This document shows positions 9,524 to 12,108 of a stretch of DNA of 14,301 nt, piece after piece. The stretch lies in NCBI RefSeq assembly GCF_003334405.1, contig NZ_QOWM01000030.1, one strand, 5' to 3'. The position numbers and the translations under genes are program-made. The stretch's first letter is position 1; each line of letters opens with the position of its first letter. The stretch comes from Escherichia coli (GTDB lineage Bacteria > Pseudomonadota > Gammaproteobacteria > Enterobacterales > Enterobacteriaceae). Below the pieces are notes generated by a model, which was given only the letters and a program-made list of their open reading frames with translations, did not search any database and had not been told where the DNA came from.

Positions 9524-10590
9524 TAGCGACCATCCCTTGTATCAGAAACTGTAATGATGCACTGCATGCGAGAAGCCTGTGCGTATAAAGGTTTTTGCGC
9601 AGTCCGATATAACTCAAATACCTGCTCCATGGCTGATTCAAATGATCCCCGGAACATTAAAGGCGCATCCAGACGGTAATCGGTTACAGAAAGTGGCCAT
9701 ATGACCATCCAGTGCGTTGATGCCATGCTTTCGCATTTTGTTTCTTCTGCCCACTTGATAATGTTCTCTCTTAATGTGGTGCCTGCCGGCGCACGCCACT
9801 CTTTACCCTGAGATACCGGTTTAACAGGCGTTCCGGTCATGAGCGGGATAGACTTGACTGTGGAGCCGGTTGGAGTCGGGGTGGTGGCGGGCGTTGACGA
9901 AGATACGTTGTTTCCCCTGAATGGATTTCGTGGTTTGTTCTGGCTATTTGCTGTCGTTGGAGATTCAGGGGTAGTGGATGTGGTTACCATGGCTGCTGGC
10001 GAGATAGTGGTTGCCGTGTCCTGTGTCGGTGCAGCAGCTGATGTTGTGACGGTCAACGTTTTATTATCCCAGTCCAGATGGCCCCAGAGGTGTTGTTCTT
10101 CCAGCAACCGGTTCAGAGAACGGGTCCACTGATCATTGGCAGACCATGAAACCAGTTTGGTATTCAGCTTGGGCGTGGCTGCATTCTCTTGTCTGAATTT
10201 CCATCCTTCCGGTAGTAATGTTTTTATCCACTGACTGACGGTCCGGTTACGGGCCGTCGGCGATAGTGTTACAGGGGCGCTACCAGGCTTGCCTGTAATG
10301 ATTAACCGGGAGAAATTCTGACTTATTGTTGGTGAAGGTAACGGTCGGGATTCGCTAACAGGCTGTGCTGTTTTTACTGTCTCTGGCACGCTGACTCTCG
10401 GGGGCGGAGTTATTTTAGGTGGAGAAAGACGTTGTTGCGTAAGTGCCAGAACGCCAGCACTCTCACTGATTTGTCCGTCAACAAAAACCAGAGCAGGCGT
10501 ATCTGATGGTGCCACGTTATTACTGCCGGAAATTCCGGCACAGCCGGATAATAATGATGGCAGTATAAGTGTCAGATAGTTTTTTTTCAT
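9523..10590 (-). CDS. pilL: Pilus assembly lipoprotein PilL
   Basis: Lipoprotein signal with lipobox (LPSLLSGCAG); 355 aa; Pro-rich then Ser/Thr/Pro-rich low-complexity segment (residues about 181-258); GGAG RBS 8 nt upstream of the ATG at 10590. Confidence 0.7.
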   Translation of the reverse strand: MKKNYLTLILPSLLSGCAGISGSNNVAPSDTPALVFVDGQISESAGVLALTQQRLSPPKITPPPRVSVPETVKTAQPVSESRPLPSPTISQNFSRLIITGKPGSAPVTLSPTARNRTVSQWIKTLLPEGWKFRQENAATPKLNTKLVSWSANDQWTRSLNRLLEEQHLWGHLDWDNKTLTVTTSAAAPTQDTATTISPAAMVTTSTTPESPTTANSQNKPRNPFRGNNVSSSTPATTPTPTGSTVKSIPLMTGTPVKPVSQGKEWRAPAGTTLRENIIKWAEETKCESMASTHWMVIWPLSVTDYRLDAPLMFRGSFESAMEQVFELYRTAQKPLYAQASRMQCIITVSDTRDGR

Positions 10591-10623
10591 AACGGAGACT
10601 CCGTGTTCGTATATACGTGTTTG

Positions 10624-11214
10624 TTAATTGGTGTGAGGCGGCTGGAGAGGACGAATGACGACTGTCATTCCGTCCGAATGCAAATGCGGGAGAGACCACT
10701 GAAATAAGAGATATACAAAAGGAATTGATAATCTTTCATACAGACTTGTTTTCCGTGGGCATGTAATAACAGAGAAATTCAAACCATAAGATTCCAGTCT
10801 CTTTATAAGTTTATTTATTCTTGCAGGAGTAAAGAGATGTGAATGCATAACAATGGTTTCATCATTATTAATTGCTTTTGATATCAGAGAAAGTAACACA
10901 TCCCAGTGTTTCCTCATTGACTCCGGGCAACGTGTATCGGCATAGGGGCTAAGATGTATGCTTGATTCTTTACTGCCTTTTTTTTTCGTAAAGAATGTGA
11001 AGTTGTATTTAGATACAGACCTTACGATAAGAAGTACGCATCTGAAAAGTAGTGGGGAAAAGCAAATAATAACCACTATACAGAAATATAATATATAAGA
11101 TAGTGATATGTGGTCAGTGTATAGATAACGGAAGTATTGCCACGGGGTAGTGATGTACAGGCAAAAAGTACACCAAAGTAACCATAGATATAATGGTACG
11201 TTATTATTTTTCAT
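10624..11214 (-). CDS. pilK: Hypothetical membrane protein (two N-terminal TM helices plus soluble domain), possibly PilK-like
   Basis: 196-aa ORF immediately upstream of pilL on the same strand; its ATG overlaps the stop of the preceding ORF (ATGA at 11211-11214). Strongly AT-rich compared with the flanking pil genes. The pilK name is inferred only from position and size. Confidence 0.45.
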   Translation of the reverse strand: MKNNNVPLYLWLLWCTFCLYITTPWQYFRYLYTDHISLSYILYFCIVVIICFSPLLFRCVLLIVRSVSKYNFTFFTKKKGSKESSIHLSPYADTRCPESMRKHWDVLLSLISKAINNDETIVMHSHLFTPARINKLIKRLESYGLNFSVITCPRKTSLYERLSIPFVYLLFQWSLPHLHSDGMTVVIRPLQPPHTN

Positions 11215-11507
11215 ATTAGTTGACTTTTAATACTGTTTTCTATCACCACATTTTTATGTGTCTCATTTGGCACTTCGTACTGTTGGAAATATTGTTGGCG
11301 GCGGATGCGTGTCTGTTCACTGCTTTCTATTAACACCGCCATGGCGATTGCAAAGTATATGCAAATCAGGAAAATCCAGAACGCGTTTGGTATCTTCCAA
11401 AAAAGTGTGGACAGTTTGTTATGTGGTGAAACTAAAATCGGAGAAAGGATTCCACAGACAATCACAATAGCGATGGTTAATTTAACTAGAAAGAACATGG
11501 TAAACAT
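11211..11507 (-). CDS. pilJ: Hypothetical small membrane protein (two predicted TM helices), possibly PilJ-like
   Basis: I prefer the ATG at 11507 (98 aa, MFTMFFLVKLTIAIVIVCGI...), which has GGAG 7 nt upstream; the track start at 11564 is a TTG with no RBS. AT-rich. Translationally coupled to the downstream pilK-like ORF. Confidence 0.4.
   Translation of the reverse strand: MFTMFFLVKLTIAIVIVCGILSPILVSPHNKLSTLFWKIPNAFWIFLICIYFAIAMAVLIESSEQTRIRRQQYFQQYEVPNETHKNVVIENSIKSQLI
11453..11500. repeat. 48-bp direct repeat, copy A (inside the 5' coding region of the pilJ-like ORF)
   Basis: cacagacaatcacaatagcgatggttaatttaactagaaagaacatgg matches copy B at 11595-11642 at 44 of 48 positions, offset 142 bp. 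Confidence 0.8.
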
Positions 11508-11594
11508 CGTTAATCTCCATGATAAAAGGGAGAGAGGTAATAAAGAAAATAAAGATGGCAACAAACGGCTAAATTAAAATCGTTAAAAGGTGTA

Positions 11595-11642
11595 CACAGA
11601 CAATCGCAATCGCGATGGTTAATTTAACTAAAAAGAACACGG
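11595..11642. repeat. 48-bp direct repeat, copy B (intergenic, upstream of the pilJ-like ORF)
   Basis: cacagacaatcgcaatcgcgatggttaatttaactaaaaagaacacgg; similarity to copy A extends weakly a further ~12 bp to the left. On the minus strand it would encode a degenerate copy of the pilJ-like N-terminal helix (VFFLVKLTIAIAIVCV) without the ATG. Confidence 0.8.
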
Positions 11643-11682
11643 CCCCCACCCGTTTTGACGAGGTCTTTTGTTTTTGTTGTGT

Positions 11683-11937
11683 TTACGACAGCCAGTCCTG
11701 TAGATGCTGATGGCGGGAGCTGCTGCCCTTGTGCCAGCGGCAGTGGCTGCCGGGAGCACGCTCCAGTCGGAACAGAAATCGGTTGTCGCGTAGTACCACC
11801 ACGATACAGTTATCCGGCGTGCAGAAACGTCGGGCAAGCTCATCGGGGTCTGTCGGTGTTTTCGTTGAAAACAGCCTGCGTTTGCAGTGTGCGTCGACGA
11901 CCAGTATTTGCAGTCGTCCGGGATGTTGCTGTGGCAT
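11683..11937 (-). CDS. Hypothetical small protein (84 aa), Cys/His-containing, GC-rich; possibly PilI-like
   Basis: Internal ATG at 11937 is preceded by GGAAGGAG with a 6-nt spacer, a much better start than the track ATG at 11982. The ORF is GC-rich, unlike the adjacent AT-rich block. No recognisable domain. Confidence 0.4.
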   Translation of the reverse strand: MPQQHPGRLQILVVDAHCKRRLFSTKTPTDPDELARRFCTPDNCIVVVLRDNRFLFRLERAPGSHCRWHKGSSSRHQHLQDWLS

Positions 11938-12108
11938 CAAAGACTCCTTCCGGAACGGGAAAAGAAGCAGCTGTACCGTCATAACTGCACGTACCGGTTG
12001 CGAAAAAACGGCACAAGCGAGTAGTGACAGAAAGAATGTCGGAAACGGCAGGAAGGGCGGTACAGGCTGCGAAGACTGGAAACGGGGTATGCCGGGGATT
12101 ACACATCC

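Follow-up and report, generated by a model that had tools for sequence, protein, structure and literature searches.

Why should the beginning of a pilus gene occur twice, once in the gene itself and once immediately ahead of it? The question is raised by a 14,301-nt stretch of Escherichia coli DNA (contig NZ_QOWM01000030.1), referred to here as the window. The original prediction had noticed a duplicated segment at the boundary between an A+T-rich block and a G+C-rich upstream gene and offered three readings of it: a scar left by duplication or recombination, a cis element present in two copies, or part of a short GTG-initiated leader peptide of about 23 codons. Our analysis points to the first of these. 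The repeat is very probably the structural scar of a replacement of the pilJ start site in the ColIb-P9 lineage of IncI1-complex plasmids, and its interpretation as a scar at the pilI/pilJ boundary is upheld by a relic at the ancestral position of the start, a foreign patch between the two copies, and the existence of single-copy alleles.

The genes in question lie on the minus strand of the window in the order traC, pilI, pilJ, pilK, pilL, and onward to pilU. Open reading frames of 227, 84, 98, 196, 355, 145, 560, 431, 150, 517, 365, 204, 186, and 227 aa fit the arrangement traC-pilI-pilJ-pilK-pilL…pilU, IncI plasmids in which pilI, pilJ, and pilK are annotated share 99% identity with the region, and the structure is like that of ColIb-P9 apart from a 9-nt indel. 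On the strength of these features we identify the locus as the thin-pilus (type IVb) pil operon of the IncI1 complex, with a pilI-pilJ-pilK allele of the ColIb-P9 type. The G+C-rich upstream gene, as read from the sequence, is pilI (11683-11937, minus strand; 84 aa; TAA stop at 11685-11683), whose counterpart in near-identical plasmids is annotated as encoding a "PilI type IV pilus biogenesis protein" and whose homologs match Pfam PF10623. It is followed by pilJ (11211-11507, minus strand), which by its translation and by the annotated pilJ of OR790945 and CP090291 encodes a ColIb-P9-type protein of 98 aa beginning MFTMFFLVKL…; ColIb-P9 itself has the same 297-nt gene. According to the ORF list and annotated relatives, the remainder of the A+T-rich block is pilK (10624-11214, minus strand; 196 aa).

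The repeat is genuine and not a product of chance. Two copies had been placed at 11453-11500 and 11595-11642 with 44 of 48 bp shared, and both the match count and the coordinates were reproduced. The duplication was real but its length had been underestimated: in place of 48 bp it is a direct repeat of 72 nt (11429-11500 and 11571-11642), identical at 61 of 72 positions (85%) and with a start-to-start spacing of 142 nt. Chance is excluded because 200 shuffles of a 1.1-kb region never gave a best direct match above 31 of 48 (mean 26.7) or 39 of 72, against 44 and 61 observed. No third copy was found in the window on either strand, and no inverted repeat was found within the copies. Copy A (11429-11500, minus strand), identified as the functional copy by repeat comparison and hydropathy, corresponds to codons 3-26 of the present pilJ and to its first hydrophobic helix. 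This bears out the proposal that it encodes the first transmembrane helix, since copy A forms the hydrophobic N-terminus of the 98-aa PilJ, with 19-residue Kyte-Doolittle means above 2 from residues 1-10 onward. Copy B (11571-11642, minus strand) is intergenic, as had also been stated, and sits between pilI and pilJ.

Comparison with related plasmids indicates which copy occupies the original place. After pilI, both R64 (NC_005014) and its relative L003 have TAA-N42-GGAGGGGACC-ATG followed by an intact pilJ of 150 aa, which starts exactly at the copy-B position (the sequence continues TAA-N42-…CAGGAGGGGACC-ATG-TCG-TTT-TTA-TTT-AAA-TTA-ACC…). A GGAGGGGACC-AT(G/A) motif stands at the same place in two more diverged single-copy lineages, L013 and L040-42, the latter being the P0036 type, a 109-aa form present in 305 collection blocks. 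Because the single copies of R64, L003, L013, and L040-42 start there, these alignments place the ancestral pilJ start ~42 nt after pilI, in the form GGAGG-N5-ATG, and it is copy B, not copy A, that lies at the ancestral position. The 40 nt between pilI and copy B (11643-11682, minus strand) align with the R64, L013, and P0036-type loci as the ancestral pilI-pilJ spacer; they end in GGGTGGGGGCC and include a degenerate Shine-Dalgarno (SD) sequence, GGTGG, at 11650-11646.

This comparison also answers whether copy B is ever part of an intact ORF, an outcome that the original prediction had listed as a refuting one: its R64-type ortholog starts the 150-aa pilJ. That the ortholog is a true pilJ start argues against both a cis element and a leader peptide. 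As a cis element, the two copies would be a repeated site ahead of the pil genes, for example for a TraB/TraC-like regulator or a recombinase, and such a role would suit a closely matching pair of direct repeats that lie 142 nt apart, not far from where an operon segment begins. The pair, however, consists of the 5' coding end of pilJ and a relic at the ortholog position. R64, which has fully functional thin pili, contains one copy and other plasmids contain none. No promoter-like site was found on the gene strand, either within the repeats or close to them, and they have no internal symmetry of the operator type. With an intact pilJ start as the copy-B ortholog in R64-type plasmids, we consider a repeated cis element extremely improbable.

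Copy B, delimited by repeat comparison and by orthology with R64, L003, and L040-42, has lost the features of that start. Relative to the ancestral sequence it carries three substitutions, in the SD core, at the -3 position, and in the start codon (GGAGGGGACCATG to GGTGGGGGCCGTG), and the window here reads GGTGGGGGCC-GTG, with GGTGG where R64 and two other lineages have GGAGG. The claim that copy B lacks an ATG and a ribosome binding site (RBS) is correct for the ATG but needs amending for the rest, as copy B has a GTG (11640-11638) after a degenerate SD (GGTGGGGG). In the same way, the GC-rich run ggcccccaccc that was said to follow copy B exists, but it equals this degenerate SD on the opposite strand and hence precedes copy B when the strand is read as it is transcribed. 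From the GTG at 11640 the frame contains 23 sense codons (VFFLVKLTIAIAIVCVHLLTILI) and then a TAG (11571-11569), which arises exactly at the junction with the spacer that separates the two copies. Copies A and B differ at 11 nt, 6 of which are packed in 15 nt and change amino acids; the copy-B peptide differs from copy A at 6 of 23 residues, a non-synonymous cluster. An origin of copy B from another intact pilJ allele was considered and rejected, as the residues that are its own (…AIAIVCVHLLTILI…) were in no intact PilJ among 73 protein clusters. The lost SD and ATG, the TAG at the junction, the non-synonymous cluster, and the intact pilJ start at the ortholog position show copy B to be a truncated, decaying relic of the original pilJ 5' end, and probably a non-functional one.

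An open frame of 23 hydrophobic codons, with a GTG and a G-rich SD-like run, could also be taken as a functional upstream ORF or leader peptide that regulates pilJ and pilK. The same GTG signals are the sole pilJ start in the single-copy plasmids L011 and L012, where the gene is still called by annotation pipelines, and copy B is nearly invariant in 19 duplicated-type sequences, all of which are very recent relatives. The frame predicted for such a peptide does exist, but its SD-like run pairs to within 1 nt of the GTG, and it has lost the GGAGG and ATG of three other lineages. With its stop 61 nt ahead of the pilJ ATG, the relic ORF is unlikely to be translationally coupled to pilJ. An attenuator structure was looked for in the form of a terminator or an alternative-hairpin architecture, and neither was found; the leader fold is not more stable than shuffled sequence (z=+1.4), the leader has no match to a known RNA family in Rfam, and no promoter-like or terminator-like site on the gene strand of the segment rose above background. 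A weak UCUCC/GGAGA pairing in IncI2 that could mask the SD falls short of significance (z -1.2 to -1.6), and the window is predicted to fold differently. The divergence of the peptide from copy A, a 1-nt deletion inside one metagenome copy, and the absence of the peptide from several pilJ lineages speak against it as well, since the R64-type, P0036-type, and pilJ-less plasmids that do without it all have working pil operons. We therefore found no support in these sequence analyses for a regulatory role of copy B or of the repeats, and a leader peptide appears very unlikely.

The start that pilJ is predicted to use today lies between the copies. The gene is annotated from an ATG in the spacer (11507-11505), which puts three residues (MFT) before the former Met (…ACC-ATG; 11498-11496). 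A GGAG (11518-11515) precedes this ATG by 6-7 nt, depending on counting convention (GGAG-N7-ATG), and both motifs are inside the spacer. The calculated SD:anti-SD pairing energy is -10.8 kcal/mol with good spacing for the R64 start, -8.4 kcal/mol for the relic GTG, with only 1 nt left between the paired run and the codon, and -6.4 kcal/mol for the ATG at 11507, at a distance of 6 nt; the ATG at 11498 has no SD within range. From annotation and from SD energy and spacing, the imported ATG at 11507 is predicted to be the start used by pilJ and is favoured over the relic GTG. The 98-aa PilJ has two strongly hydrophobic segments, of which copy A is the first. The ~55 aa at the C-terminus of R64 PilJ are missing from it, and the pilJ stop overlaps the start of pilK.

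When the 70-nt spacer (11503-11572, minus strand; delimited by blastn, tblastn, and alignment against IncI2) was searched against 72,556 plasmids, it turned up in two settings only. The first comprises IncI1-complex plasmids like the window, with 298 records at 99% identity or more in addition to a variant without 9 nt. The second is IncI2, where several hundred plasmids, each ~60 kb in size, match the spacer at 87% (61/70). Across 24 metagenome contigs and ~860 plasmid records the spacer again had only two contexts, either IncI2 ORF-X/nfeD or IncI1-type with copy B upstream; the metagenome scan was probed with the SD-ATG core, and its 24 matching contigs were all IncI1 duplicated-type or IncI2. 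In the plasmid records and the 24 metagenome contigs the spacer was never seen ahead of pilJ without copy B, and a scan of species-representative genomes gave 0 matches.

In IncI2 plasmids the spacer-like segment adjoins the 5' side of a gene annotated as "NfeD family protein" and reaches into its ATG. The product of this gene matches Pfam PF01957 (E=1.6e-8), and the gene comes after one encoding an SPFH-domain protein, for example in NZ_AP017614. The interval of ~370 nt between the two holds a membrane ORF of ~99 aa, mostly unannotated, which we call ORF-X. Two IncI2 variants keep it open and, despite many residue differences, share the ending FYHGD*, while a third IncI2 variant is without it; the ORF-X stop overlaps the nfeD SD (GGAGATTAG). 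The spacer of the window matches the final 21 codons of ORF-X together with the SD and ATG(TT) of nfeD, and it keeps the C-terminal frame of ORF-X (…LAVCCHLYFLYYLSPFYHGD*; stop at 11512-11510) with no start codon. ORF-X matches the window by tblastn with E=5e-6, and blastn gives 84.8% identity over 11578-11503. These matches identify the spacer as a foreign nucleotide patch homologous to the IncI2 ORF-X/nfeD junction, carrying the RBS and ATG that pilJ would now use.

What the window has in common with the IncI2 SPFH/ORF-X/NfeD cluster is thus 70 nt at 87% identity, including the ORF-X stop region, the SD GGAG, and the ATG; unlike that cluster, it has no SPFH gene, no complete ORF-X, and no NfeD domain. 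When the IncI2 SPFH, ORF-X, and NfeD sequences were compared by tblastn and blastn with the window and with ~49-kb portions of R64 and ColIb-P9, they matched only the spacer, and no internal IncI1 donor was found. A common descent of pilJ and IncI2 nfeD, with PilJ as a diverged NfeD homolog, was tried as a candidate and rejected (BLASTP against IncI2 NfeD, E=0.08); the 150-aa PilJ has no significant Pfam or NCBIfam match and no PF01957 domain. IncI2 plasmids are described as being without pilI, pilJ, and pilK (PMC9045228). Because PilJ is unrelated to NfeD and IncI2 plasmids are without pilIJK, the spacer is a nucleotide patch and not a sign of shared gene ancestry. Among the plasmids, representative genomes, and metagenomes searched, the identity of candidate donors to the spacer did not exceed 87%; its actual source would be either an unsampled relative of IncI2, or else the patch is older than it looks.

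The direction of this exchange could also be read in reverse, with the duplicated form ancestral, the R64-type single copies generated from it by recombination between the repeats, and the spacer taken by IncI2 from IncI1. Deletion mediated by the repeats does yield single-copy forms, as in L011, and at the spacer-pilJ junction a weak similarity to IncI2 nfeD extends past the ATG (TTTAC..TGTT..TTCT). At the protein level PilJ and NfeD show no homology. In IncI2 the spacer belongs to a coherent, conserved ORF-X frame that runs upstream, whereas IncI1 has a start-less 21-codon fragment. The duplicated types are almost identical to one another, while the single-copy lineages are ~8-25% diverged and all have an intact SD and ATG at the copy-B position. 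A reversed polarity is quite unlikely on these grounds.

The duplicated arrangement was counted in ~428 plasmid records, at a threshold of at least 80% coverage of a 321-nt probe, and these include ColIb-P9 (NC_002122). ColIb-P9 carries a 61-nt form of the spacer and the window a 70-nt form. The difference is a 9-nt unit (11547-11555, minus strand; the second CTTTATT unit in the alignment of 19 duplicated-type sequences) that is present in the window and in IncI2 and deleted in ColIb-P9-type plasmids. Because the extra 9 nt are also found in IncI2, the spacer form of the window is best read as the older one, and that of ColIb-P9 as a slippage deletion. Besides this indel, the 19 duplicated-type sequences have at most 5 variable sites, one of which is the 1-nt deletion, a frameshift, inside copy B of the metagenome copy L038. 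As the sampled copies are nearly uniform, the duplicated arrangement appears to be young or to have spread recently; with so few variable sites, the 19 sequences are too alike to be informative about selection on copy B.

A few plasmids with ~95% identity to the window are shorter than it by exactly 142 bp. One of them, L011 (NZ_CP057464), is a clean hybrid of copy B at the 5' side and copy A at the 3' side. Its bases are those of copy B as far as a 23-nt stretch common to the two copies and those of copy A beyond it, and the crippled GGTGG/GTG is the only start that remains to its pilJ. Recombination between the repeats would be expected to give just this product, and we infer that the repeats are recombinogenic. 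L012 (NZ_CP129822) is single-copy with GGTGG/GTG as well, yet at two positions where copy A is derived its bases are ancestral. Plasmids of the L012 type may go back to an earlier form that had the duplication, or they may show the state before it arose. Because they fit either alternative, they do not fix whether the old start decayed first or the new start was captured first. Capture of the new start followed by decay of the old one is slightly favoured by parsimony, given the ACC-ATG kept in copy A.

It is also conceivable, if doubtful, that the insertion was selected as a rescue or re-tuning of the translation of pilJ and possibly of pilK. A lineage with a decayed GTG and SD would then have captured the nfeD RBS and ATG by template switching between plasmids, and the relic 23-codon ORF, perhaps weakly translated, might modulate ribosome loading on the new start. 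If true, such a selected rescue would be a natural "start-site capture" between co-resident plasmids.

For the start-site replacement, selected or not, an IncI2-like plasmid resident in the same cell would have served as the donor, and the transfer would have occurred at short microhomologies, through either illegitimate recombination or template switching during replication. If this was a single event, replication of the pilJ 5' end would have jumped to the IncI2-like template at TTTAAT, copied ~70 nt from it, and then returned to pilJ beginning at TTTAC/AC. Two successive illegitimate recombinations between plasmids would be an alternative route to the same product. The direct repeats could then recombine and remove 142 bp, which would give rise to the single-copy B/A hybrids. 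The junctions have microhomologies of ~5-6 nt that may be coincidence, namely TTTAAT, in the copy-B end and in IncI2 ORF-X, and TTTAC/AC at the other junction; BLAST homology to IncI2 reaches 11578 if a 3-nt gap is allowed, and this gives the TTTAAT microhomology with the end of copy B. Because these microhomologies are short, we offer template switching only as a working hypothesis.

Templated insertions with flanking duplication are seen in both bacterial and eukaryotic genome rearrangements. The pilJ locus resembles those attributed to microhomology-mediated template switching or illegitimate recombination in its combination of a donor-copied stretch and a flanking duplication, to which the candidate junction microhomologies may be added. 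It differs in that the donor is 87% rather than ~100% identical, and the mechanism in this case is a reconstruction. A transposable element or MITE was considered separately and rejected, as there are no inverted repeats at the spacer ends and the flanking duplication is 72 bp, compared with an expected 2-14 bp.

A comparable architecture is found nearby, in the traC-pilI spacer 300 bp upstream, where the trcD cassette of 714 bp has a ~108-nt sequence on both sides. Compared with trcD-carrying plasmids, the window has the one-copy, cassette-less (collapsed) form, and the cassette and repeats differ from those of the pilJ case. Sequence comparisons portray the pilI-pilJ locus as generally plastic. 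Surveys often report pilI, pilJ, and traD as "missing" from IncI1 plasmids (PMC10682676, PMC8115979). Other forms of the locus that we observed include a pilJ that is almost wholly deleted (L004, L005), a pilI-pilJ fusion (L006), an internally deleted pilJ of 109 aa, and two small genes replacing pilJ. There are also hybrids with one half of R64 type and the other of ColIb type, and a variant that combines the MFT start with a full-length C-terminus. Many pilJ products in the locus survey run into foreign sequence.

For the plasmid itself, the start replacement probably matters little. In the work of Yoshida et al. from 1999, pilI and pilJ are reportedly the two pil genes not required for the formation of the R64 thin pilus, and the title speaks of twelve pil genes that are required. 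Because pilJ is reported to be dispensable for thin-pilus formation, the functional consequences of exchanging its start are probably small.

Part of this polymorphism has been described before. The passages of PMC8004404 on this locus, citing Sampei et al. 2010, mention a "60 bp insert" by pilJ in ColIb-P9 that is not in R64, a 9-bp tandem repeat within that insert in some IncI1 plasmids, and differences between R64 and ColIb-P9 in the alleles of pilI, pilJ, and pilK and of traD/trcD. This is the same locus and the same insert as in the window, which has the 70-nt form including the 9-bp repeat. Those passages make no mention of the flanking 72-bp duplication, of an origin in the IncI2 ORF-X/nfeD junction, or of the replacement of the RBS and ATG.

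The event we describe is of a familiar kind, at a locus already known to be polymorphic, and reveals no new mechanism; its bearing is mainly on plasmid comparative genomics and annotation. It explains the unannotated "intergenic" stretch of 166-175 nt with a pilJ pseudo-start that recurs in IncI1/ColIb-P9-type resistance plasmids. It also traces the "60 bp insert" of the literature to an IncI2-type ORF-X/nfeD junction, and thereby documents that IncI2-like and IncI1 backbones have exchanged a small piece of sequence. The 72-bp repeats are the likely cause of the 142-bp length polymorphism, of differences in pilJ annotation between GTG and ATG starts, and of possible mis-assembly. The alleles of the locus (single copy, duplicated with or without the 9-nt unit, and B/A hybrid) could serve as lineage markers for the typing of these plasmids.

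One intergenic region upstream of the pilI-pilJ spacer, the trcD site has the same layout, with a cassette lying between long direct repeats. In trcD-carrying plasmids, a 714-bp trcD cassette is bracketed by two copies of an approximately 108-nt sequence (positions 1450-1557 and 2164-2271 of L002, a locus of this kind). The traC-pilI spacer of the window contains a single copy of this sequence (11994-12101, minus strand) and represents the one-copy form of the site, without the trcD cassette.

The pilJ and pilK genes of the window are A+T-rich (10550-11600, G+C 0.33-0.38), while G+C is approximately 0.50-0.54 on both flanks, in pilI/traC on one side and pilL on the other. This contrast is consistent with a separate origin of pilJ and pilK, distinct from that of the other operon genes. 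The pilK-pilL gap is 33 nt in the window versus approximately 330 nt in some plasmids (3587-3914 in L005, where pilJ is nearly all deleted, and 3632-3959 in L006, which carries a pilI-pilJ fusion).

In two IncI2 plasmid loci, an ORF encoding a product of approximately 99 aa with three hydrophobic segments, here called ORF-X, is found between the SPFH and nfeD genes (L008, 2262-2561; L009, approximately 2258-2558); it is absent from the third IncI2 locus compared, L010. Most RefSeq gene tables do not include ORF-X, although two diverged variants keep the frame open. Its stop codon overlaps the nfeD Shine-Dalgarno sequence, and ORF-X is probably a real gene that would be translationally coupled and belong to the SPFH/NfeD module.

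Comparison with an R64-type pilJ (L003, 2170-2412) showed that window-type PilJ lacks approximately 55 C-terminal residues of R64 PilJ (…ISRETTDDESD…KNGKPVEIMVCDVQELHFFVPKN); the window-type pilJ stop overlaps the pilK ATG (ATGA, 11211-11214). Other lineages carry this C-terminal module behind a different, single-helix N-terminus (predicted PilJ proteins of the P0054 type) or, in L006, as a fusion to PilI. Since the C-terminal module is missing in one type and differently joined in the others, PilJ appears to consist of two exchangeable modules.

Many predicted PilJ proteins in the database begin with normal pilJ sequence and then continue into an unrelated tail, with the same handful of tails recurring (for example …GFAPIFPDICYHLTHY…, …CVFRSIRSRIGIEVRSAIRIH… and …AYSALFDHGLASKSDQRF…). 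Clusters with such foreign tails include P0003, P0005-P0007, P0010-P0012, P0014, P0018, P0022, P0024, P0032, P0048, P0050 and P0062, among others. This pattern points to frequent insertion of putative mobile elements into pilJ.
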